Shown: one piece after another, positions 6,811 through 33,818 of the stretch
Layout: the number at the start of each line of letters is the position of its first letter
How positions within the stretch are numbered: position 1 is the stretch's first letter
From: a virus
Taxonomy: Duplodnaviria > Caudoviricetes
Virus record (IMG/VR): IMGVR_UViG_3300043672_000039
Location: 1-64,000 of that record
Length of the DNA stretch: 64,000 nt
Strand: one strand, 5' to 3'
Position numbers and translations under genes: made by a program
The notes under the pieces: model-generated
Told to the model about the DNA's origin: nothing
Databases searched by the model: none
What the model saw: only the letters and a program-made list of their open reading frames with translations

Positions 6811-7534
6811 TACCCTCGTGGCAGTTTCGGCTTACGCGGGCGATTTATCGCAGGTAGAAAACAATATGCCGTATTACGTTCATCACGGATGCCAAGTCGC
6901 AATCTTCTCTCCGGAAGACGCGCCGATTGACCGAGTTGAGCAGCCGGGTGTGGTGTGCTACGTCGCTGGAAAAAAAGGCTGGATCGGAAAGCATACGCTC
7001 GAACGCCAGCGGCTATTTCTCGAAGGGTTGCTGCGTTTTTCACAAGAGAATTTTTTGTTCAACGACTCCGACTCGTTCTGTCTGTCGCCCCGGCTCCCGG
7101 ACTACCTCTACGCAAACAGGGATGTCATCTGGTCGAATGAAGTGCTCGATACGAACCCCGCGCCTTCTCACCTTCCGAAGCTCGCGTTGCAGCCGCCGTA
7201 TTTTCTTTCGCGCCGGACGATTGAGGGAATGTTAAGGGCCGCGCAAAATCTTCCTACTTCATACTACGCTGGAGCTTCTGGGTTCGGCGAATTACCGGTG
7301 CCGACCGAGTGTATCGACCACTGGATGTTGCAAGTCGCCTGCGGCTCCGGGTATCCGCATCATAATTTTTTCACGGGCGCTAGTTTCGAAACAGGAACGG
7401 ACCACGGTGCGCGGGAGATGGAAAACTTAGTTGCGCATCATGGACGAGTCTTGATACACTCTGTTAAGACAAAAAATGTTTTAGATCGACTTGCCGCCGC
7501 ACATGCAAACTACCGCCGAACACATGGTCAGTAA
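6794..7534 (+). CDS. Putative glycosyltransferase-like protein B
   Basis: NDSDSFCL, IWSNEV, QPPYFLSR shared with upstream paralog; ATG at 6794 or 6800. Confidence 0.55.
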   Translation: MNMNPNTLVAVSAYAGDLSQVENNMPYYVHHGCQVAIFSPEDAPIDRVEQPGVVCYVAGKKGWIGKHTLERQRLFLEGLLRFSQENFLFNDSDSFCLSPRLPDYLYANRDVIWSNEVLDTNPAPSHLPKLALQPPYFLSRRTIEGMLRAAQNLPTSYYAGASGFGELPVPTECIDHWMLQVACGSGYPHHNFFTGASFETGTDHGAREMENLVAHHGRVLIHSVKTKNVLDRLAAAHANYRRTHGQ

Positions 7535-7997
7535 GATTTGTAGCAAGTGTAAAACAGCCAAGGCACCTTCAGATTTCAATCTGGATAAGTCCTCCAAGGA
7601 CGGGCATAGATTTTCGTGCCGGGCATGTGATTCGGAGGGGTTTGAAAAATATCGGGAGAAACACCGAGAAAAGCTTAATTCGGAACAGCGAAGTCGCAGA
7701 TCAAAAAATCCAGAATTTTATAGACGAGTTGTTTCTCGAAGTGATTTGAAACGGAGGTTTAATTTGACCCCCGAAGAAAAACAGAAACTAATCGCTCAGC
7801 AAGGGAATTGTTGCGCGATTTGCCGCGAACCTTTTAAATCTTCTTTTCATACCCATGTGGATCATATCCATGGATCGAGTCCGGTAATTCTTCGAGGTAT
7901 CCTTTGTTCAAATTGTAACGCCGGTTTGGGTCAGTTTAAAGACTCACAATTTAATCTTCATCAGGCAATTTTGTATCTTCAAAAATCTCAAGGTTGA
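7503..7997 (+). CDS. Endonuclease VII-like (HNH) homing endonuclease
   Basis: CSKC..C..C Zn motif, CAIC...HVDHIH...RGILCSNCNAGLGQFKDS. Confidence 0.85.
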   Translation: MQTTAEHMVSKICSKCKTAKAPSDFNLDKSSKDGHRFSCRACDSEGFEKYREKHREKLNSEQRSRRSKNPEFYRRVVSRSDLKRRFNLTPEEKQKLIAQQGNCCAICREPFKSSFHTHVDHIHGSSPVILRGILCSNCNAGLGQFKDSQFNLHQAILYLQKSQG

Positions 7998-12073: not shown

Positions 12074-12617
12074 AGTTCTCCTCCTCAGTCTCGCTCTGTT
12101 GGCCGGGTGCTCTTACTTTCCGTTGCGCCCCGGGATCGGATTGATCCAGTCCGGTCCGAACGGCGGCGCATACGTTCGACAGTCACAAAATCCTCAAGCG
12201 GAGTCCACGCAGAAATACGAGCGGACTACGGAGACGATTCCTGCCGGGCTCACAAACGCGACCGTTCGAATTACGGAAAAGGGCGAGACGAAAATAGGTG
12301 CCGCACAAAAAGACACCGCGCGTGAAATGGCGGCAAAACTCGGCTCTCTTAAAAGCGTCGTGTGGATCGGCATCCTTGTATTTCTTTTCGGTGCCGTGAG
12401 CTTTGTTTATCCTCCGTTGAAAATCATTACGGGCGGGAGTATTACCACGAGTGCTGTTATTACCGCCGCCGGGTTGGCCCTCATTGTGCTACCGTCCCTC
12501 ATCGTTGGGCATGAGTTGCTGATTCTCGCTGTTTCGGGGGGTGCCGCCGGGCTCTACTTCTTTGCTCATAGACATGGGAATCTTAAGGGAGTGGTCGAGA
12601 CTCTCAAACCAAAATAA
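12063..12617 (+). CDS. Lipoprotein with C-terminal transmembrane helices (spanin-like candidate)
   Basis: MKNKVLLLSLALLAGC lipobox; hydrophobic C-terminal helices. Confidence 0.6.
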   Translation: MKNKVLLLSLALLAGCSYFPLRPGIGLIQSGPNGGAYVRQSQNPQAESTQKYERTTETIPAGLTNATVRITEKGETKIGAAQKDTAREMAAKLGSLKSVVWIGILVFLFGAVSFVYPPLKIITGGSITTSAVITAAGLALIVLPSLIVGHELLILAVSGGAAGLYFFAHRHGNLKGVVETLKPK

Positions 12618-13330
12618 TGGCGGCGATTTCACAGATAACGAGCGGAGTTTTACAGACTTTTTCGCAACCCCGAGTAGGGGAAACGGTTAAAATTTTTGTA
12701 TCGTCAAACACTTTGTTCAAGGTGGGCGCGTTTATTTTTATCGCAAACTCTGGGCTTTATTCGGTCGTTCTTTCGGGTTCGCACGGACAAATATCAGTTA
12801 AACTTGAACGGAAATCTTTTGATGCCGGAGCGCAGGTAAAGCAAGGATCAATAATCACTTTTGTTTCTGAAACCGCCATAGGTCCCTCGGGTCCTGCGGG
12901 CGTGACCGGACCGAGCGGAATTGCTGGCCCGGCGGGCGCTGTGGGTGCTACCGGCGCGACGGGAGCCGCAGGCGCAACCGGGGCAACCGGTCCGTCCGGA
13001 GGTGCTATTTCAATTGTAGCCGCAGAAAATCTCCCTGCTTTTATTGCTGTGACTTCGACCGGGTTCAAAGCCAATTCTTCAACAACCGCCCATTTTTCGC
13101 GCATCGTTGGTATTACTACCGCAGCTATTTCTTCTGGTTTTTCTGGGGGTGTGGTAGAAGTGGGAGAAATTCAAAATTTGGGTTGGTCTTGGATTTCCGG
13201 AGACATAATTTTTTTAAACGGACTCGGACTTTCGACGATTCCGCCAACATCCGGGTTCGTTCAAAAGATCGCCCTTGCAAAAAACTCAACAACCTTAATA
13301 GTGGAATTGGATGATCCAATTCTTTTGTGA
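12617..13330 (+). CDS. Collagen-like repeat fibre protein
   Basis: 13 Gly-X-Y triplets at 12881-12997, rich in GAT. Confidence 0.75.
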   Translation: MAAISQITSGVLQTFSQPRVGETVKIFVSSNTLFKVGAFIFIANSGLYSVVLSGSHGQISVKLERKSFDAGAQVKQGSIITFVSETAIGPSGPAGVTGPSGIAGPAGAVGATGATGAAGATGATGPSGGAISIVAAENLPAFIAVTSTGFKANSSTTAHFSRIVGITTAAISSGFSGGVVEVGEIQNLGWSWISGDIIFLNGLGLSTIPPTSGFVQKIALAKNSTTLIVELDDPILL

Positions 13331-14621: not shown

Positions 14622-15698
14622 ATGTCTGATTGCGGATGCAATAAAAATCCCCGGAATATTCTCGATTGCAACACGAACACGACCGAGTCGTGCCAGAATC
14701 CGTGCTGCTCGACGCCGACTAATTCCGCCGCGTGTGAATCACTCCCGAGTCAAATCGAGAATTTCACGCTTCAATTTTTCGGCACCGTAGTTAAGACGGA
14801 AATTGACGGGGCTGTTTCGTGGTCGCTGCCTTGCAATCTCGATGTCGGGCTCCCGAATAATCCGCGTGGCGTCGATGAGGGCCTCGCATGTTATTTCCTC
14901 CGCCTTTTCCATGATGGAATTGTAGGATTGACTGGTCCTCAAGGCGCGGCTGGAACCCCGGGCACGAACGGTCACAACGCGTATACCGTGACTCTCGCGG
15001 GATTTGCGCAACCGACTCTTGCATCTCCGGTAGTTCAAGTTGTCACGCAATACAACCCGGCGATTTTGCCCGGCATCTACGTTTACATTTCGACTTCTGG
15101 TTGGTATCTCGTCAACGAAACAGACGGGAACGGCGTCCTACTGCTCACGCTTGTTAAATCGGTTGACGGTCCGGCGGCGTTCATCGCCGCAGGAAAGCTC
15201 GTGGTTCCTAGCGGTTTTCCGGGCGCATCGATTCAGGGCGGACCCGGCCCGCAAGGTCCGCAAGGTCCGCAAGGCGTCCCGGGTAACACCTTCACAACCA
15301 CCAATGGAATTTATTTCGCCGAAGTCGGAACAGATTTCAATCTGCCGATTGTTTATGCGCAAGTGGATTTCGTAAATTCGGCTCCGCAGCTTTTGCTGCC
15401 GACTGCCGGGCTATATCTCGTGACTGTGGTCGCGGGAGTGCAAGGAGAAACCGGTGTTGCTTCTACGGACGCCGCGACTCTGAAACTTCGCAATCTAAGT
15501 TTGGGCGCGGACATCGGCGGTTCCGAACATCTGATCTCAAACGTTGCGGTTGATGAGTTTGGTCAGATCGTGATCAATATCCGGGTCCAAACAGACGCCG
15601 TGAATCAGACCATTGCTCTGTATGGGAAGTGCACTTCGGATGTAAAAATTTCAGTGGTCGCGCTGCACACCACAATGACATATGTCAAAATCGCGTAA
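14622..15698 (+). CDS. Collagen-containing virion fibre protein with Cys-rich N-terminus
   Basis: MSDCGC...CCS; two Gly-X-Y blocks (GPQGPQGPQG). Confidence 0.65.
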   Translation: MSDCGCNKNPRNILDCNTNTTESCQNPCCSTPTNSAACESLPSQIENFTLQFFGTVVKTEIDGAVSWSLPCNLDVGLPNNPRGVDEGLACYFLRLFHDGIVGLTGPQGAAGTPGTNGHNAYTVTLAGFAQPTLASPVVQVVTQYNPAILPGIYVYISTSGWYLVNETDGNGVLLLTLVKSVDGPAAFIAAGKLVVPSGFPGASIQGGPGPQGPQGPQGVPGNTFTTTNGIYFAEVGTDFNLPIVYAQVDFVNSAPQLLLPTAGLYLVTVVAGVQGETGVASTDAATLKLRNLSLGADIGGSEHLISNVAVDEFGQIVINIRVQTDAVNQTIALYGKCTSDVKISVVALHTTMTYVKIA

Positions 15699-21522: not shown

Positions 21523-22347
21523 ATGGCACTAAAACCTACAAATCTTTACATTCAGATGGCACCGTTGCCCGCGACCTTCAAAGGGAGCCCGCAAGATTTC
21601 GCGGTTGCCATGGTGCAACGTATGAAAATTCTTTCGCCCAACGGAACGAATTTCATTTTCATTGGCGACGTTGAGCCTATTTCCAATGTCGGTCCGTGGT
21701 TGCGCGGCGGCACTCAATGGTGGGTCTGGGATGAGAATATCAAGCGATATGTTCCTCTCGATATCTCCGCGTCCGAGACGCGATGGTATTGGATGGGCGC
21801 GAGCACCCCGACGAGCACTCCTCCGCAAGTGTGGCTGAAGACGACGAAGGACGCGACGGACCAAGACCCGAGCCATGGCGAGCCGATTGGCTGGTATGTG
21901 TTCGATGGCACTACTTGGAATCCTTTTATCGGAATCGTGTTGAGCGGTTCGACTGCGGACCGTCCGACTGGCGGAGTTGAATATCAGCAGTATTATGACA
22001 CGGATATCGCTGTCCTTATCTGGTGGGAGCGGGGGCAGTGGAGAACGGTTTCCGGCGTTCCCGGCGATATCAAATTTACTGTGTTTGAAGTGCTGACGGA
22101 CGCTCTGCGGTTCAATCCCGGCTGGGAAGTTCTCGGTGCTGGCAATCAATCTTTTCGTGGACGTATTATCGTTCAAGCGGCGAAGGATTCAGGAACGTCA
22201 CCGGAAACGGTGCTTACGGTTGGGGCAAATATCACCCCAAGGCAAGCTCTAGAAACTTTTGGCGAAAGTGATGGGATCAAAATCGATAATGCGTCCACTT
22301 TAAAATATCCCGGGACCCTCGCTTGCTGGACTCTGGTAAAAACATAA
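21523..22347 (+). CDS. Putative tail fibre/baseplate-associated protein (274 aa)
   Basis: Trp-rich beta segments (GPWLRGGTQWWVWD, YVFDGTTWNP); tail module position. Confidence 0.55.
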   Translation: MALKPTNLYIQMAPLPATFKGSPQDFAVAMVQRMKILSPNGTNFIFIGDVEPISNVGPWLRGGTQWWVWDENIKRYVPLDISASETRWYWMGASTPTSTPPQVWLKTTKDATDQDPSHGEPIGWYVFDGTTWNPFIGIVLSGSTADRPTGGVEYQQYYDTDIAVLIWWERGQWRTVSGVPGDIKFTVFEVLTDALRFNPGWEVLGAGNQSFRGRIIVQAAKDSGTSPETVLTVGANITPRQALETFGESDGIKIDNASTLKYPGTLACWTLVKT

Positions 22348-22349
22348 AA

Positions 22350-22925
22350 ATGCAATCGGTTTTTATCTATTCATTGAACGATCCGATTTCGGGGCGGTCT
22401 CGTTACATTGGGAAAACTGCCAATCCCACAATCCGGCTAGATCAGCACATTCGAGAGTCTCGAAAAATTAAGAAAAACTACCACAGACTAAACTGGATTC
22501 GTTCTCTGGGTTCACGAAATTTAAAACCGGTGTTTGAAATTTTAGATGAGGTTCCAGCGTTGGAATGGGAATTCTGGGAATGCGAATATATTCGTCTCTA
22601 TAGAATTCTAGGTTTTAATTTAACAAACTCCACGGATGGAGGAGAGGCAGGCCCTTCTATGAAGGGAAAAAAATTATCTCTGGAACAGTGCGCGAGTCGT
22701 GTTGGTAATAAGCGGAGATTAGGAATTCCGCATACCCCGGAGAGCAAGGCCCGAATCAGCGCCGGAAGTCGAGGACACAAAAAATCTCTAGAAACGCGGG
22801 CGCGGATGAGTGCCTCTTTGCGAGGTAATACTCGTTTTGTTGGCCAGTGTTTGTCAGATTCGCACAAACAAAGGCTATTGGAAGGGCACCGTAAGTGGCG
22901 GGATTCACTCGTCAAAACCCCTTGA
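22350..22925 (+). CDS. GIY-YIG homing endonuclease with NUMOD3 repeats
   Basis: FIYSL..YIGKT; NLTNSTDGGE; HTPESKARIS and KSLETRARMS repeats. Confidence 0.9.
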   Translation: MQSVFIYSLNDPISGRSRYIGKTANPTIRLDQHIRESRKIKKNYHRLNWIRSLGSRNLKPVFEILDEVPALEWEFWECEYIRLYRILGFNLTNSTDGGEAGPSMKGKKLSLEQCASRVGNKRRLGIPHTPESKARISAGSRGHKKSLETRARMSASLRGNTRFVGQCLSDSHKQRLLEGHRKWRDSLVKTP

Positions 22926-24375: not shown

Positions 24376-25050
24376 ATGCCAGTAAGCACACTCAACGGAT
24401 GGACTAGCTCGGGATTACTTCCGAGCAGCACGGTCGTTTCACAAATTCTCAGCCGCGCGGGTTCAGGGGCGCAAGCCGCTCCTCCGCCGGGCTCCGTTCC
24501 CCCGCCTGCGGGCGGTGCGGCGTCCCCTCCGCTTTTCGGCGGGCTCGGAGGCGGTGCAACTACTCCCGGGGCTGGTGGATATCAGCCGTTACCTTCCGTG
24601 CCGTCCCGTCAGCCGCCCGGGTTTGGTGGGGGAGCCGGACCCGGATACGGAGATGTGTCCGGTGGACGAGGATGGGTGAATCCGTCACTTACTCCCGAGC
24701 AAGCTTACTCTCAGTATTTGCAATGGCGAGGGTTCGCAGATACTACGACTCCTTTGCAGGCGAATATTAATGCGATGGTCGGGGCTCAGGGGGCCTTAGC
24801 GTATAGTAGCGCCGGAGACCCGAACCGAAATGGATTGAACTACGATCCATACGGCGCCACTTTGCGAGCGAATCTCGCGGCTCAAATGATGGGTGTTCAA
24901 CGTGCCTCGCCGTATGCTTATTCATATGGAACTCCGGCGGCTCACGCTCCGGCTCCTCAACCGGCGGGCGGATACGTCACCGGTTATGGGGCTCCTCCAC
25001 CTTCTCCCGGTGGTGGATTCGGATTCAGTGGCGGTGGATTCGGTTTCTAA
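24376..25050 (+). CDS. Gly/Pro-rich low-complexity virion protein
   Basis: ATG after AT-rich leader; Gly/Pro-rich composition. Confidence 0.6.
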   Translation: MPVSTLNGWTSSGLLPSSTVVSQILSRAGSGAQAAPPPGSVPPPAGGAASPPLFGGLGGGATTPGAGGYQPLPSVPSRQPPGFGGGAGPGYGDVSGGRGWVNPSLTPEQAYSQYLQWRGFADTTTPLQANINAMVGAQGALAYSSAGDPNRNGLNYDPYGATLRANLAAQMMGVQRASPYAYSYGTPAAHAPAPQPAGGYVTGYGAPPPSPGGGFGFSGGGFGF

Positions 25051-26558: not shown

Positions 26559-29500
26559 ATGCCGGACCCCATCTCAATAGGGGAGTCGGTTCAACTGACT
26601 CCTGACCAAGTTGCACAGTTGCAACAACCGGCGGATGCTTTTCCTGTCGGCTCGCAAACCGTTCTAAATTCAGAACAGGCCACAGAAGCTCGCAAGCAAT
26701 CCGGCCATTTCGATCCGTTCACTGATTTTACCGCAGAGCAACTTGCGGAGTTGCATCATCAATCCCCGGACTTCAAGCTTGTCGAGTCTTACGCGCCGCG
26801 CAGCGATTTGCAACAGGTGCCCGGGATGAATCAAAAGGTAGCTGACGCATATAGCATGCTCCGGCAGCGAGGAGACTTCGGGGCGCAACTCGATATCAAG
26901 AAAGTTCCCGGCCAGTTGTTCGACATCGCCAAAGGCTTTGGCAAGCAAGCTTGGAATTACGCGCAAGCGGTCGCGACCCCGGTCGGTGCCGCAATCGCGG
27001 ATGTTGCCGGTGCTTCGCCGGAAACGGTTTCTCGAATGTTCGGTGAGGGTCAACGACAAGTCGCGGAGAACGTCGCCGGAACGGAAGCCGCGTTGCAAGG
27101 TCTGGGCAAAACTGTTGGCGCGGGCTCAGAGTGGATCAAGCGCCGTCTCAAACTTTCGAAACCTCTCGCGGAATTTACGCCAGAGGAGAAAGTTGCCGAC
27201 TTGTTCGATGCGGTTCGGTCTCATAAACAGCTTCAAGAAATATCGCGCGGTCAGGGTCCGATACTTCAGACGGTTGGCTCTGAAGTTGTTAAGCAGCTTG
27301 AGGATGCCGGAACCCCTGTCCGTCCAGAGGAAGTTCAGAAGCTCGCTGCCGGTGATCCGTTCTCATGGTATTTGATGGGCAAAACTTTCTCCGGCGCGGG
27401 AGCCCTCGTTCCGGAAGCCGTCGCGTCACGCGCGGCTCAAGCCGCTCAAGCGGCGGGAAATTTCGCCGCGAAAGTTGGCGGTAAGACCGTAGAAACTGCC
27501 GCAGACGTTACCCGACTCGGGCTTGATGCCGCCGCCGTGGTTGCGCCGACTGCCGCCGCTGTTACCGGCGCGGTGAAGGGTGGAACCCACGGCCCTCTCG
27601 GCGTCGTCACTGGGGCAACCCTCGGTTACAAAGGCGGACAAGTTATTGCTAGCGGGCTCCGCAAAGGTGCGACTACGGCAGAGAAAGTCTCTCAAATCGG
27701 CGAGCAAATCTCCGGCGCTAAGCCTGTTATTTCACCCGTGGCTCAACTCGGTCGAGATGTGCTGCAATCTTCGCCTGCGGCAGTCGGGGAACTGGGAAAA
27801 GGCGTCGCGTTCGACCTTGGATTAGCCGCCGTTACCAGCGAAGAAACCCCGGAGGAACGCGCCGGGCTCGGAATCGGCACCGCCTTTGGTGCTCTCGGTG
27901 CCGGACGCCGCGTTGCCGGGCATGTGGTAAGCGGTCAGATCATCGCGCCGCGTGAATACGGCGTTAAACAAGTCACGCCGTCCTCTGGACAATTTCCGAC
28001 TCTCGACGCCATGCACACCGCCGCGATTGCGGACGCCGCCCCGGGAGTTGCCGCGCGATTGAACGCAATTCGTTTGTTTACGAAAGGCGCGTCACCGAAC
28101 ACAGACGTTTTTCTGGCGAAGGATGCGCCCGCGATGGAATCAGCGTTGACGCAACTCGGCGTTTCGCCGGAGCAGGCTAAACAAATCTCTGCGCAAGAAG
28201 GATTTTTTACCAAATCAATCCCCGGCAAGGACGGCTCGGAGCGCCGGGTGATTCTTGCGACCAATGTTGAGTCGGCCCCGCATGAATCTTTTCATGCAAT
28301 TCAAGATGTCCTCGGTGAATCAGCGAACCGAGAGATTGATAAAATGGTGCAGTCCGCTTATACACCACGCTGGGAAAATGAAGGAAATACTTATGCTCGA
28401 CGACTTGTTGGTTTGTCCGGTCTGCAAAATAAAACTTGGCGAGAAGCAATCCTCGACGCTTCCGGCTGGGGCCGTGCAGAGGCCGCAGATAAGCTTGCGC
28501 GAGATGCAGAAAATCAAATCAATACTGCTACCGGAGCCGTTGCCAAACCCTCTGACGTTTCCGCAATGGCTGAAGGAGAGTGGGGACGCCTTCTCGCTGA
28601 TGCTGCCAAGCGAAATCCCGGAGTCCCGGTTGATGAATTGCAAAATAATTTATGGCGCGACGTGCTCACTCCCCAAGAGGCTCACGATGTCGGAGACCGA
28701 TACCTCGCCCGTGAATTAGCGGCGGAGAATTTCGATGCGGTGTTTAAACACGGACTCGGCGGAGACTCTGGTTTGATTCCGAAACTCGCCCGAGTTGTCG
28801 CTAACGTCACGTCAGCCCTAGGCGGGGAGCCGCTCTCCGGTCGAACCAGTGAAATCGGAAATGTCCCTCTTAGTTATGATGTCGTCAACGCAGTTCGCGG
28901 GATACGCCCGGTTGTTGAGCCGAAGGGCAATGTTGCAAAACCAGTTATATCGACCGGGAAGTCTGCCCAAACCGTTCCGACCACTCCTGAAGCGCAGCAA
29001 CAAGCCGCAGAGGAAGCCCGAGCCATCGCCGCAGAAGCCCCGGACGTAATTCCGCCTGCGCCGACCACACCAGTTCCGCCGAAACCGGGCCAGCCTGCTC
29101 CTACCCCGCTCCCTACCGTTGCGTCACCGCGAGAACTGCTCGGCAAAATCGCCGAAGCGATTGCAACCCGCTCGGGAGTGAAGATTAATTACTCCTCGGC
29201 TCCCGGAGAGCCCGCCGCTTCGATTACCAGCACTCGACCGATTCGCCGTTCCGTCATAGAAGCCTTTCGAACCATGCCGGAAGCTGCTCGCGCATTGTGG
29301 GAGAAGAATTTTTTCCCGGAGCGCGTCATCAAAACGAAATCCGGATATCAGGTGCTAGGCTGGGCTCCGGAAGTTTTCGCGGCGAATGCGCACAAGCTCG
29401 CCGGAACTTTAATCGATGCCGGGGTTGCATCGCCCTACGAACTGAACCCGGCTGAACGTTCCTTTTCTTCGCAGGGTTGGCAGGATTTGTATAATGATGT

Positions 29501-32500
29501 CGCGACCTTCGTAAACAATCAGATGGGCGGACGGACTGGCGCGGGCGGAGAATTGAACGTCCCGAAATCGATTACCGCGCAAGGTTACACCGCTCCTGCT
29601 GTGACTGGTGCCCCGGAGCCGATTGATCAACGGAAAGCGGATTTCATCAACATGCTTTTCCATTTCAAACTTCCGGAGACCCCGCGCATTACCTCCGGCA
29701 AGCTGCCATTGAATATCGCCGGGCAGGAAGTCAGCACGGCAACTCAACCGGGACGGTTGGTGTCGCCCGTGACCCCGAGGGCTCCTTACAGTGGAGCATC
29801 CGCCGAGAAACTTGGTATTTCCGGACGAGAAATTTTGGAGACGAATCCTCTCCGAAATGAAATCGAGCAAGCCGCCGCGTCGAAGGGAATTGATATGCCT
29901 TCGATGATCGAAGCAATTCAGCGGCTCGACCTTGCGCATATCAAAGAAGTCTCTGGCGCACCAGAGTTGCCACAGTTTCGAGGGAACACTCTCACCCTTA
30001 CCGGTGGTTTTCAACCGGCATCAGAGGCAATCACCAAAATTCGAGACGAGTCGTTTTGGAATTCAATCAAAAATTACTCTGGGAAGTTTGGCGGCGGAAT
30101 TACCGGATGGGCTTTCGAAGTTGGCGCGTCTGCTAAGACTCCGCAAGACGTTCAAGCGTTCCGAGATGCGAACCGGGAGTGGGGAGAACTCGGGCGCGAA
30201 GCCATGCGAAACAAGGATTACGATTCTGCCGCGCAGTTGCTTACTAAAGCACAGGCCGCGCGTGAAGCGTTCGAGGTTGCGACCGGCCAAAAAATCGACG
30301 GCTCTGGCGGCGCTTCTGGCGCGTCCGACATGATGCGGTCGAAAGACCCGAATTACATTCCGCCAGTTTTGGAAAAACCGGAGTTGCTCGGTCAGGCGCA
30401 GCCTAAAAATCCGGAGGTTGAAAAAGTGGCGGAGGAATACCTCAAAGGTAAGTCATTCAAGCCAATGGCTCCGCGCATTGTTCCTCTCAACGCCGAAATC
30501 GCCAAGGACATCGCTGATTATTACGACCAAGCCAAGTCGGAGCCCGCAAACCCGGCGGTGTTGAACTCTTACAACGCATTATCGGCGGAAACTATCGATC
30601 AATACAAGAAAATTATCGATGCCGGATATAAAATTGAGCCGTGGACGGACAAAGGCGAGCCTTACGCCAACAGCGCGGCAATGACGGCGGATGTAAGAAA
30701 CAACAAACACCTGTTTTTCAAACCGACTGGGTCCGACATCAAGGGCGAAAACCTGATGCTGCGCCCCTCGGGCATCGAGAAATTCAATATCAACGATATT
30801 TTCCGCGCAGTGCATGACTTTTTCGGTCACGCCAAGGAGGGGCACCAGTTCGGACCGCAGGGAGAGTTGAACGCGTGGAAAGAACACTCCGCGATGTATT
30901 CGCCGGAAGCTCAAGGGGCTCTCGCGGCGGAGACTCTGGCGCAAAATAGCTGGGTGAACTTCGGAAAGCATCTACGCGATGAGGCTGGAAATGTCCCGCT
31001 CAAGGGAGCCGCAGGTTTTCAACCGTTGGCGGAGCGTCCGTTCGCTGATCAGAAAAACATTGTGATTCCGCCGAACCTCATCGATCTAGCGCGTGAGCAA
31101 GTTCCGATTGAAGACGCGCGGACGACGAGACGTTTCGTGCAAACGCTCGGCCAAGCGCAGCCCGCACGAGATGTGCATGAAGACTTTTCAGAACGTTACG
31201 ACCGACAAGGATCGTCCCTCCTCGATGAGTTTAAAAAATCCCCCCACGGGGAGATTTCTTGGGACAAAATTCCTGCGGCCCGCCTTAAAAAAATTTGGTT
31301 GGATTATGGGAAGACCGGGGTAGTGAGAGACGAGAAAGGTTTAGAGAAGATCGCCGACAAGATGTTGGACAACATCGCCCGGTTTTCTGTGACCACTGAT
31401 CTGAGTGGGCACACGCCGAATGACCCACAAATGGTGGCCGAGGGACTAGGGCATACGCTGCCATCTGGAGGGGGTGAAGAAGGAAAACCTCCGGTGAATG
31501 AGGACTTCTACAACTGGCTCGGAGATAAGTTTTCTGATTTTGGGCTTCGTCCCTTGCAGATGGCATACGAAAAAATTTACTCCGCCAAATCGGCAGAAGA
31601 AAAACTTCAAGAAATCGATAGGGCTTTGAATATCGTCCATCAACGTTCTGACCTAGCGGGAGTGTTTGTGGAGGGAGGGTCGAAAACTCTCGATGAGATC
31701 GCCTCTCAGGGGGGTTACGCTCCTCATTCCAAACCTACTAACAATGATTACATCGGATACAAAGGGCAGTTTCAACCGAAAAAAAAAGAGGAGGAATTCA
31801 AACTGCGCCCGGCCTCGTCCGGGTTCAGCAAAGCTTGGATTCTGCCGGACGGCACTCCGGTTCAGCTTGGCGGGCAATGGCATCACGATTGGTTGAACGA
31901 AGCTACCGCCATCCGGAAGCAATACGGAATCAAAAAAGGCACCGCCGACGAGGATGACACCCGCTCGGAAGCGTTGCGCAAAGGATTTTCTCGAATCAAT
32001 TACGATGCTCGCACCGGTTCTCTGACGGTGGAAGTTCGGGAGAAAGACTTGGACAACTTGCGCGGGCCGCTCACCAAGTTTATCGAAACGAATCTGCCGC
32101 AGATCGACAAGATTCAAATGTATCTGTTCGACAACAAGGTGTCTCATGTTGCCGACTCCGGGTTCGCAAACCTTTTCGACAAACCGAAGGCCGAACGCAT
32201 GGCGGCGATTCCGTTCCTATTCGCTCCCGGGGATATCACCGAGGTATCCCCCCAAGCTACTAAAGGAGCCTTGAGCGAGCAAGCTGCACCGGGGGCGATG
32301 CCGGTTCGTGGTCAGTCACAACCGAAGAAATCCGACGAACTTTATTACATAACACCGGAGAAAAATCTTCCGAATATATTGAAAGAGGGAATCAAACCGG
32401 CAAAGCCGAAAGACTTCGATGATGAACATGCCGTGTATTTATTCCCGGACAGGGCACACATGGATGATGGGGTAGCTAATTGGCTGGCAGATAGGTATCC

Positions 32501-33818
32501 GGAAGATACCCGGCTCGTTGCGATTAAAGTTGATCCGACTGGTTTAACATTTGAACCGGCGGTTGTTGATTGGGAAGTGAAGCACAAAACTACGATACCC
32601 GTTAAAAATATTCTCGGGCATGAATCGTTAGACGATTATCCGGCACCTTTTTTTCCGAATAAAAAGGCAATGAAATTTTCTGGTCAGTCTCAACCTCCCG
32701 CAGAGCAGAAAACGTTTGAAGAATTTTCTGGAAAAGAACCGCTAGGGACGATGGCTCTTTCGAACATGACAAAGGACGAAGTCTCAAACTATTATCCTGA
32801 AGCCGTCATCGCGCGAAAGAAATTCGACCCGATTCCTTCTGAGATTGCCGACTCTCCGCTCGCCAAACAGGCCGGAGACGAGACCAAGGCAATCAGCGCC
32901 TACGCTGACAAGCTCGTTGATTTCGCGAACGAATACAAAGATGACCCGAGCTTTGCAGAGGGTGCGGACTGGTATCGAAAGTTCGTGCCTCAGTTGAAAA
33001 AGCAATTTGGAAAAGATTCCTCCGTCATGGCGGAGCTTCTCGCGGCGACGAGTCCTCGGACAGATGTCGCGTCTAACTTTGCCTACGCTCTTGACGCGCT
33101 CGAAGGCATGCGCTCCGGACGGTTCGCAAAACAGGTTGCGAAGTTCGAAGAAGGATTGCGCAAACTCGAAGGCGAGAACTGGCGTCCGTGGTATGACAAG
33201 GAACTGAAGGCCGGGAACATTCCCGCGCCGCCTGCGGAGCCGACTCCGGCAGCTTTTCTCGAACACTGGATCGCGACGTATGACCTGAAGCCCCGGCAAA
33301 GCAACGGCAAACTTTATGGAACGCACTCCAATCGAATTTTGCAGGTGCTCGCGCGACGTTGGGTCGATTTGAATACCGGTCCGAAGACGCGGACCTTCGT
33401 CAGTAATTTACTCGGAACCGGTCACGATGCAACCATCGATGTCTGGGCAGACCGAACCATGCGCCGTCTCGGGTATCAGGATTTCTCCGACCGTTGGCGA
33501 ATACTCCCGCAGAACGCCGCGCCGGTTTCCGACACCGATTTTCATTTTTCCCAGAAGGCTTTTGCCGCCGCCGCCAAACGCCTCGGGATGAAACCGGACG
33601 CGTTGCAAGGTGCCCTCTGGTTTGCAGAGAAAAAGCACTGGGCAAAAAACGGCTGGGCACGACTTGACTTAGGGAGCTTTTCGAAGGAGATTACAAAAGT
33701 GCCAATGTTGCGCCGTGGTATCGAGCAACGGTCCGCCGTTAGTAAGCTGGTCCCTAAAGGCCCTGCTGCGACGACCGGCGAACTCGGTTTCAGCATTGAG
33801 CCCCGAAAGTATAAATGA
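26559..33818 (+). CDS. Giant multidomain (polyvalent) internal virion/ejection protein, 2419 aa
   Basis: HESFH zincin-like motif, HDFFGH module, ART-like module, C-terminal HhH-like module; last large gene of the tail block. Confidence 0.8.
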   Translation: MPDPISIGESVQLTPDQVAQLQQPADAFPVGSQTVLNSEQATEARKQSGHFDPFTDFTAEQLAELHHQSPDFKLVESYAPRSDLQQVPGMNQKVADAYSMLRQRGDFGAQLDIKKVPGQLFDIAKGFGKQAWNYAQAVATPVGAAIADVAGASPETVSRMFGEGQRQVAENVAGTEAALQGLGKTVGAGSEWIKRRLKLSKPLAEFTPEEKVADLFDAVRSHKQLQEISRGQGPILQTVGSEVVKQLEDAGTPVRPEEVQKLAAGDPFSWYLMGKTFSGAGALVPEAVASRAAQAAQAAGNFAAKVGGKTVETAADVTRLGLDAAAVVAPTAAAVTGAVKGGTHGPLGVVTGATLGYKGGQVIASGLRKGATTAEKVSQIGEQISGAKPVISPVAQLGRDVLQSSPAAVGELGKGVAFDLGLAAVTSEETPEERAGLGIGTAFGALGAGRRVAGHVVSGQIIAPREYGVKQVTPSSGQFPTLDAMHTAAIADAAPGVAARLNAIRLFTKGASPNTDVFLAKDAPAMESALTQLGVSPEQAKQISAQEGFFTKSIPGKDGSERRVILATNVESAPHESFHAIQDVLGESANREIDKMVQSAYTPRWENEGNTYARRLVGLSGLQNKTWREAILDASGWGRAEAADKLARDAENQINTATGAVAKPSDVSAMAEGEWGRLLADAAKRNPGVPVDELQNNLWRDVLTPQEAHDVGDRYLARELAAENFDAVFKHGLGGDSGLIPKLARVVANVTSALGGEPLSGRTSEIGNVPLSYDVVNAVRGIRPVVEPKGNVAKPVISTGKSAQTVPTTPEAQQQAAEEARAIAAEAPDVIPPAPTTPVPPKPGQPAPTPLPTVASPRELLGKIAEAIATRSGVKINYSSAPGEPAASITSTRPIRRSVIEAFRTMPEAARALWEKNFFPERVIKTKSGYQVLGWAPEVFAANAHKLAGTLIDAGVASPYELNPAERSFSSQGWQDLYNDVATFVNNQMGGRTGAGGELNVPKSITAQGYTAPAVTGAPEPIDQRKADFINMLFHFKLPETPRITSGKLPLNIAGQEVSTATQPGRLVSPVTPRAPYSGASAEKLGISGREILETNPLRNEIEQAAASKGIDMPSMIEAIQRLDLAHIKEVSGAPELPQFRGNTLTLTGGFQPASEAITKIRDESFWNSIKNYSGKFGGGITGWAFEVGASAKTPQDVQAFRDANREWGELGREAMRNKDYDSAAQLLTKAQAAREAFEVATGQKIDGSGGASGASDMMRSKDPNYIPPVLEKPELLGQAQPKNPEVEKVAEEYLKGKSFKPMAPRIVPLNAEIAKDIADYYDQAKSEPANPAVLNSYNALSAETIDQYKKIIDAGYKIEPWTDKGEPYANSAAMTADVRNNKHLFFKPTGSDIKGENLMLRPSGIEKFNINDIFRAVHDFFGHAKEGHQFGPQGELNAWKEHSAMYSPEAQGALAAETLAQNSWVNFGKHLRDEAGNVPLKGAAGFQPLAERPFADQKNIVIPPNLIDLAREQVPIEDARTTRRFVQTLGQAQPARDVHEDFSERYDRQGSSLLDEFKKSPHGEISWDKIPAARLKKIWLDYGKTGVVRDEKGLEKIADKMLDNIARFSVTTDLSGHTPNDPQMVAEGLGHTLPSGGGEEGKPPVNEDFYNWLGDKFSDFGLRPLQMAYEKIYSAKSAEEKLQEIDRALNIVHQRSDLAGVFVEGGSKTLDEIASQGGYAPHSKPTNNDYIGYKGQFQPKKKEEEFKLRPASSGFSKAWILPDGTPVQLGGQWHHDWLNEATAIRKQYGIKKGTADEDDTRSEALRKGFSRINYDARTGSLTVEVREKDLDNLRGPLTKFIETNLPQIDKIQMYLFDNKVSHVADSGFANLFDKPKAERMAAIPFLFAPGDITEVSPQATKGALSEQAAPGAMPVRGQSQPKKSDELYYITPEKNLPNILKEGIKPAKPKDFDDEHAVYLFPDRAHMDDGVANWLADRYPEDTRLVAIKVDPTGLTFEPAVVDWEVKHKTTIPVKNILGHESLDDYPAPFFPNKKAMKFSGQSQPPAEQKTFEEFSGKEPLGTMALSNMTKDEVSNYYPEAVIARKKFDPIPSEIADSPLAKQAGDETKAISAYADKLVDFANEYKDDPSFAEGADWYRKFVPQLKKQFGKDSSVMAELLAATSPRTDVASNFAYALDALEGMRSGRFAKQVAKFEEGLRKLEGENWRPWYDKELKAGNIPAPPAEPTPAAFLEHWIATYDLKPRQSNGKLYGTHSNRILQVLARRWVDLNTGPKTRTFVSNLLGTGHDATIDVWADRTMRRLGYQDFSDRWRILPQNAAPVSDTDFHFSQKAFAAAAKRLGMKPDALQGALWFAEKKHWAKNGWARLDLGSFSKEITKVPMLRRGIEQRSAVSKLVPKGPAATTGELGFSIEPRKYK

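Follow-up and report, generated by a model that had tools for sequence, protein, structure and literature searches.

Introduction

The described system closest to the protein considered here is that of the polyvalent proteins, for which release of the domains by a metallopeptidase carried in cis has been proposed (Iyer, Burroughs, Anand, de Souza and Aravind 2017; PMC5512222). The protein, P0001, is 2419 amino acids (aa) long and is encoded on the + strand of the window, a stretch of 64 kb (positions 1 to 64,000) of the 73,186-bp Caudoviricetes record IMGVR_UViG_3300043672_000039, a record rated complete. P0001 is a phage polyvalent protein, composed of a constant N-terminal region of 1153 aa and six cargo modules, and it is near certain that the short peptide recurring at the borders of these modules is a real junction code, selected at the peptide level.

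Similar to the polyvalent proteins (PMC5512222), P0001 is a giant late-gene phage protein with an HExxH motif in cis, in which several unrelated domains, enzymes among them, are joined in one polypeptide and the architecture is highly variable among relatives. Unlike the polyvalent proteins as described, however, the P0001 family has a defined tetrapeptide at nearly every border, varying in concert by lineage, and its zincin-like domain gives no Pfam match to MPTase-PolyVal, the hub metallopeptidase of polyvalent proteins, at expectation (E) values up to 5. No junction or cleavage motif is given in the description of the polyvalent proteins (PMC5512222), where the word 'linker' occurs 0 times, and none was found in the literature searched. 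The idea of a processed polyprotein has already been published; what goes beyond it is a defined peptide at the junctions and the way in which this peptide varies in concert by lineage. A second parallel is offered by the MARTX toxins of Vibrio and relatives, likewise huge polypeptides with a constant part and exchangeable cassettes, in which an in-cis cysteine protease, activated by inositol hexakisphosphate (InsP6), cuts after Leu in the linkers between effectors (PMC3153235, PMC6315884). MARTX toxins are bacterial, secreted and act on eukaryotic cells, whereas P0001 is a phage protein with a different motif, a zincin as the suspected protease and a cleavage that is predicted.

In the polyproteins of RNA viruses a short consensus peptide stands at each domain border and is read by a protease of the virus (picornavirus 3C, coronavirus Mpro, potyvirus NIa), and sites and protease specificity evolve together. 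P0001 also has a conserved short consensus peptide at its domain borders, co-varying by lineage. Unlike P0001, whose modules are cargo and whose link to a protease is putative, the RNA-virus polyproteins belong to eukaryotic hosts, yield the replicase and are cut by chymotrypsin-like serine or cysteine proteases. Among DNA phages, proteins carried in the head undergo trimming at short motifs, before or during maturation, and enter the host together with the DNA, as do the internal proteins (IPs) and Alt of T4 (cut by gp21), the inner-body proteins of phiKZ (cut by gp175), and DarA and DdrB of P1; these, however, are trimmed at one or a few sites by a separate prohead protease and are not strings of modules with sites at the borders.

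The junction motif of P0001

The gene, its motif copies and the modules between them are as follows, with AlphaFold confidence given as the predicted local distance difference test (pLDDT) and module presence counted in 120 relatives.

26559-33818, + strand: gene for the 2419-aa polyvalent protein P0001, an open reading frame (ORF), closing the late + strand arm ahead of the strand switch
26559-30017, + strand: conserved N-terminal region, aa 1-1153, collinear in all relatives
30003-30017, + strand: junction motif 1, GGFQP, last residue aa 1153
30018-30389, + strand: module M1, aa 1154-1277, helical, in 85 relatives
30390-30404, + strand: junction motif 2, GQAQP, closing a linker of pLDDT ~41 right ahead of folded M2
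30405-31103, + strand: module M2, aa 1283-1515, phrog_3170, in 88 relatives
31011-31025, + strand: AGFQP look-alike within M2, no junction; folded loop of pLDDT ~91, missing in the homologue from Microcystis phage Mel-JY33
31149-31163, + strand: junction motif 3, GQAQP, pLDDT ~32; the homology blocks of M2 reach as far as aa 1510-1520
31164-31763, + strand: module M3, aa 1536-1735, accessory cassette, in 2 relatives
31764-31778, + strand: junction motif 4, GQFQP, pLDDT ~30, then folded M4; 82 homology blocks begin at most 10 aa away
31779-32309, + strand: module M4, aa 1741-1917, alpha/beta, high pLDDT, in 104 relatives
32310-32324, + strand: junction motif 5, GQSQP, from motif scan, homology-block ends and AlphaFold model
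32325-32681, + strand: module M5, aa 1923-2041, accessory cassette with a weakly Tpt1/ART-like start, in 16 relatives
32682-32696, + strand: junction motif 6, GQSQP; 75 homology blocks begin within about 15 aa
32697-33815, + strand: module M6, aa 2047-2419, DUF7178 (PF23802)

The seven motif copies listed in a preliminary description of this DNA were all found in the ORF 26559-33818, beginning at aa 1149 (GGFQP), 1278 (GQAQP), 1485 (AGFQP), 1531 (GQAQP), 1736 (GQFQP), 1918 (GQSQP) and 2042 (GQSQP), and the module sizes that follow from them, 129, 253, 205, 182, 124 and 377 aa, are in line with its estimates. Such a series is not expected by chance: in 5000 shuffles of the protein GQxQP, which is present five times, occurred with a mean of 0.035 and a maximum of 2, and [AG][GQ]xQP, present seven times, with a mean of 0.22 and a maximum of 4. 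Seven of the ten QP dipeptides of P0001 are part of the motif, just four loose matches are found in the rest of the window proteome (50 ORFs, 14,390 aa), and a scan of the window ORFs found zero copies in the putative capsid protein. The copies within P0001 differ in synonymous codons (GGT/GGC/GGG, CAG/CAA, CCT/CCC/CCG), which supports the selection at protein level that had been proposed from codon differences. At borders supported by homology the core of the motif is Q-[F/A]-x-P, with F at 60% and A at 25%, and at the first junction G-F-x-P; there is a weak preference for A/G ahead of it, with K/R directly behind and acidic residues next, and the first-junction consensus across the family is FRGNTLTLxAGFQP.

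The position of the motif was compared with the ends of homology blocks and with the predicted structure. With P0001 as the query, BLAST blocks break at aa 1149-1160, 1270-1290, 1510-1520, 1730-1740, 1880-1930 and 2030-2050, and there is no block break at aa 1485, the AGFQP copy at 31011. When 121 proteins were compared all against all, a [QG][FYLAM]xP peptide lay at most 5 aa from 28% of the block starts (4.7% for random positions) and 0-10 aa before 28% of the block ends (5.1% for random positions). In the AlphaFold model of aa 1220-2419, M2, M4 and M6 have pLDDT >90, and the motifs at aa 1278, 1531, 1736, 1918 and 2042 lie in stretches of pLDDT 26-41 that border domains of >90. The AGFQP at aa 1485, in contrast, is confidently folded and homology blocks run across it. 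The earlier placement of the motifs at domain boundaries, and the idea that structure prediction would find them in linkers, therefore hold for six copies by block ends or AlphaFold linkers, five of them by low pLDDT, and fail for the copy at 31011, which is inside the folded M2 domain. In summary, six of the seven copies are junction peptides, and the copy in the folded loop only resembles one.

Concerted variation of residue x

Residue x of the motif is Q in most proteins of the family, and whole proteins use E, K/R, A/S/T or L/M/V instead. Identity of x within a protein is 0.347, compared with 0.20 when permuted (>10 standard deviations). As a control for shared ancestry, the 995 alignment positions of the N-terminal region were ranked by how well each predicts the class of x downstream; x of the first motif is the best predictor (mutual information, MI, 0.752; z 4.9; rank 1 of 995), and the next-best column, 767, has an MI of 0.567. 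In the tree of the N-terminal region a K/R pair (L016p/P0078, support 0.97) is sister, with a support of 1.0, to an all-Q pair (L014p/P0047), the N-terminal identity between the two pairs being 66-68%. Between them, Q or A has changed to K or R at 5-6 orthologous junctions with the same flanking cassettes and with varied codons, and the internal M2 loop (AGFQP) does not follow the switch. Widely separated on the tree are a further K lineage (P0155) and the three E lineages P0021, P0191 and P0188; judged from this alignment and tree, x turned to E on more than one occasion, and likewise to K/R. Given that the x sites are dispersed along the chain and change in concert, a reader that changes with them is called for. 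This co-evolving reader would most likely be a protease, for which the zincin of P0001 itself is the prime suspect.

The P0001 family and its cassettes

Among 50,697 phage records there was no cultured relative of the P0001 gene (at the DNA level), of the N-terminal region or of the putative capsid protein, and relatives of P0001 come from metagenomes, with at least 354 matches in one search, most of them on contigs of ~70-78 kb. The N-terminal region forms a separate family, for which 1.84 billion representatives yielded 214 clusters at 50% identity, and matches to it stop at query residue 1153 or 1154, the end of the first motif. Past this point segment clustering finds 0 to about 12 cassettes, the same cassette occurring in varying slots and copy numbers, and nearly every cassette has Q-[F/A]-x-P just ahead of it. 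The cassettes of relatives include GNAT, radical SAM, His_Phos_1 (histidine phosphatase), methyltransferase, ART-PolyVal, DUF3293 and DUF7178 domains, and some relatives carry tandem copies of a ~100-aa cassette. M6 (DUF7178) is almost always the last module. The cassette shuffling that had been suggested for the motif is thus borne out by comparison of homologues, which gain, lose and reorder cassettes at the motif borders.

Two minimal but complete genes inside contigs consist of the N-terminal region and M1 alone (L019:4496-8527, 1343 aa; L020:8001-11642, 1213 aa). Both stop at the expected place of the second motif, retain the HExxH and the first motif, and stand in loci where three upstream genes and a small downstream gene keep a conserved order. 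Given these complete family members, the whole cargo array is dispensable.

Scans of single modules against Pfam, PHROG and NCBIfam returned DUF7178, phrog_3170 and phrog_3842 only. M2 is the only part of P0001 shared with cultured phages, occurring in genes of mycobacteriophages and in polyvalent proteins of cyanophages. A 4013-aa 'lysin' of Microcystis phage Mel-JY33 (L001:5887-17925) contains M2 at 36% identity, with neither the leading motif nor the internal loop. Because this M2 homologue, in an unrelated cyanophage polyvalent protein, has no motif, the motif is not part of the M2 fold. The Mel-JY33 protein has one HExxH and zero Q-F-x-P junctions, and a peptide LFQGQRG adjoins its HExxH. 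The likeness of M5 to Tpt1 (phmmer E 0.0026) extends over just 25 residues of a poorly modelled module. M6 matches DUF7178 at aa 2255-2356 with 53.7 bits against a gathering cut-off of 27, and its helical core (aa 2114-2374; 32898-33680, + strand) has, as modelled, a putative likeness in fold to HhH-GPD DNA glycosylases, as well as to DUF2419, the queuine-salvage enzyme; this predicted likeness is the first functional lead for the Pfam family DUF7178.

The N-terminal region and its putative zincin

Within the constant region the following parts were distinguished.

27378-27683, + strand: Ala/Gly-rich helical stretch, aa 274-375, low-confidence model
27906-28928, + strand: zincin-like domain, aa ~450-790, three strands followed by the HExxH helix, high pLDDT
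28281-28295, + strand: HESFH, aa 575-579, the single HExxH of P0001
28713-28715, + strand: Glu719, invariant in relatives, candidate third zinc ligand
29130-29990, + strand: conserved domain, aa 858-1144, with an SH3/WYL-like beta-barrel

The presence of an HExxH in the same protein as the motifs had been pointed out in the preliminary description, and this single HESFH proves to be near-invariant across the family: in 166 relatives, the minimal members included, H575 is conserved in 99%, E576 in 96% (the remainder being Asp) and H579 in 100%. In the AlphaFold model and alignment, H575, E576 and H579 lie on a helix (575-585) behind three strands, and the invariant E719 lies on a helix at 705-731. 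An HExxH on a helix with a third ligand downstream, here presumably E719, is the arrangement of a gluzincin-type metallopeptidase. The model of this region is confidently alpha/beta, with the strand-strand-strand-helix order of zincins, and the region has a weak match to the zincin-fold domain of anthrax LF. With the whole models (1154 aa and 1200 aa) as queries, Foldseek found no PDB structure at E <= 0.001. The VIA fold searches were dominated by the helical stretches, the beta-barrel and M6 and hardly bear on M2, M4 and the zincin; the N-terminal profile matched, among PDB sequences, designed helical proteins only.

Two further features of this region were noted. Behind the zincin domain is a near-invariant segment, GGEPLxGRxSEIG (aa 755-767, in 28821-28874, + strand, aa 755-772), within which a few relatives have a junction-like GQIQP, inconsistently across the family. 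Column 767, ranked second as a predictor of the x class, belongs to this segment, which could be a pseudo-substrate or an extra site. The stretch at 27378-27683 (+ strand), ~100 aa rich in Ala, Gly and Val, is predicted with very low confidence to form long helices, and on this model it could act on a membrane or form a channel, as parts of ejection proteins do.

Genomic setting

The + strand arm ahead of the P0001 gene holds collagen-repeat tail-fibre-like genes and one weak match to a 'virion structural protein', and beyond the gene, on the other strand, come replication genes, those for an exonuclease and DNA polymerase A among them. The position of the P0001 gene, at the end of the late arm after the collagen-repeat tail-fibre-like genes, is kept in relatives. 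This setting is the context for a putative carriage of P0001 in the virion, from which it would enter the host together with the DNA. The 30 ORFs neighbouring P0001 gave no match to a protease family, and most of them match no family at all.

Other features of the window include collagen triple-helix repeats in two late proteins (12617-13330 and 14622-15698, both + strand) with weak tail-fibre PHROG matches, a homing-endonuclease-like ORF among the late genes (22323-22925, + strand; phrog_314, E 5.5e-14), and an ORF with an Endonuclease VII domain (7491-7997, + strand; PF02945, E 6e-18) that overlaps the end of the gene preceding the putative capsid gene. Two genes upstream of P0001, a 224-aa protein (24376-25050, + strand) with a Gly/Pro-rich stretch contains AGGYQP at aa 67-72, the sole first-junction-like peptide outside P0001.

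Discussion

It is suggested that the junction peptides Q/G-[F/A/S]-x-P, in their short disordered linkers, would be processing sites at each module border. Cutting of the chain there by the zincin of P0001, whether inside the particle or once the protein has entered the host, would part the modules from one another. A specificity pocket of the protease would recognise residue x, and sites and enzyme would be forced to change together. Many zincins favour a hydrophobic P1' residue, and for this reason the likeliest scissile bond would be that between Q/G and the F/A that follows. The preliminary description, which took the motif for a recognition site at which effectors are released after ejection, possibly cut by the HExxH of the same protein, is in this respect partly supported. 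Processing of the junctions by the in-cis zincin is given a probability of roughly 0.4. The larger claim, that this is a true polyprotein system on the cargo of a DNA phage, with an in-cis zincin that has repeatedly changed specificity along with the full set of its sites (x being Q, K/R, E, A/S/T or L/M), is tentative and somewhat unlikely.

Several observations weigh against processing by the zincin. The region matches no Pfam or NCBIfam peptidase model and has no significant profile similarity to the metallopeptidase of P1 DdrB (hhalign probability 0.76%). No column of the zincin stands out for co-variation with x, the best being 767 (MI 0.567, z 3.2) and the next having MI of 0.555 and 0.523, and a screen for convergent change in two K/R and three E lineages found no recurrent charge-complementary column; between the K/R clade and its Q sister, candidate changes for the lining of a predicted S2' pocket are Q to E at aa 506 and A to D at aa 637. 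In some proteins x is a bias and not a rule, for example in those with mixed Q/S/N. M3 and M5 are poorly modelled and have few relatives, and the linker status of three junctions comes in part from homology-block ends. Furthermore, some polyvalent proteins that bear a metallopeptidase (N4 vRNAP, ArdC and TraC1) stay intact (PMC5512222).

The absence of a zincin column that clearly tracks x raises the possibility that the junctions are indeed processing sites, cut by an unrecognised head-maturation protease of the phage or by a protease of the host, with the zincin being an effector or serving some other purpose. The head proteases of T4 and phiKZ cut packaged internal proteins at short motifs, and such an enzyme could hide among the proteins of this phage, given how few of them match a family; the junction position and the concerted x demand a co-evolving reader and do not say which. 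This scenario is nevertheless distinctly unlikely, as no protease family was found in the neighbourhood of P0001, the motif is almost confined to P0001 within the window and missing from the putative capsid protein, and even the minimal family members retain the HExxH. In the case of a host protease, it is furthermore difficult to explain why sister phages should have Q sites in one and K/R sites in the other. It is also possible that the motif is not cut at all. It would then be a short linear motif recognised by a partner, such as a chaperone of packaging or ejection, a component of the portal or channel, or a neighbouring module, or it would set the conformation of the linkers for packing and threading a chain of 2400 aa. 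Its invariant Pro and its charged, disordered surroundings are as usually seen in short linear motifs, a binding partner could co-evolve with x just as a protease could, and several polyvalent proteins are delivered uncut (PMC5512222). However, a purely conformational linker needs no lineage-wide switch of x at all junctions, and the presence of the motif between cassettes of every fold, together with the ending of the minimal genes at a would-be junction, fits the separation of units better; an uncut motif is accordingly considered unlikely, while being a serious competitor.

The gain, loss and reordering of cassettes exactly at the motif would also follow if it were a recombination junction only, a short shared coding stretch for in-frame swaps with no role in the protein. 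This is improbable for two reasons: the copies in one gene differ in synonymous codons, such that DNA identity between them is limited to a few bases and selection acts on the peptide, and x switches at orthologous junctions where the flanking cassettes are the same and no cassette has been exchanged. Two chemical or translational routes to separation were rejected. Self-cleavage at Gln-Pro does not agree with the existence of whole lineages that have K, R, E, A, S, L or M at x, and a 2A-like ribosomal skip does not agree with the lack of a conserved upstream peptide or with a lineage-specific x that bears no evident relation to the ribosome.

Polyvalent proteins are regarded as "multi-tools" of phages and plasmids against host defence, in which cutting and the sites of cutting have so far been prediction. 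A defined junction peptide provides exact sites to mutate and exact neo-termini to seek, and the lineage switches of x provide a built-in test of specificity, in which an enzyme of the Q type can be set against sites of the K/R type. Should the motif be uncut, the cargo proteins of phages would have in it a short linear motif of a new type, whose partner evolves along with it. Should it be cut, the family would hold natural, mutually orthogonal pairs of protease and site with predictable cut sites, and a catalogue of motif-delimited cargo modules, M2, M3, M4 and DUF7178 among them.

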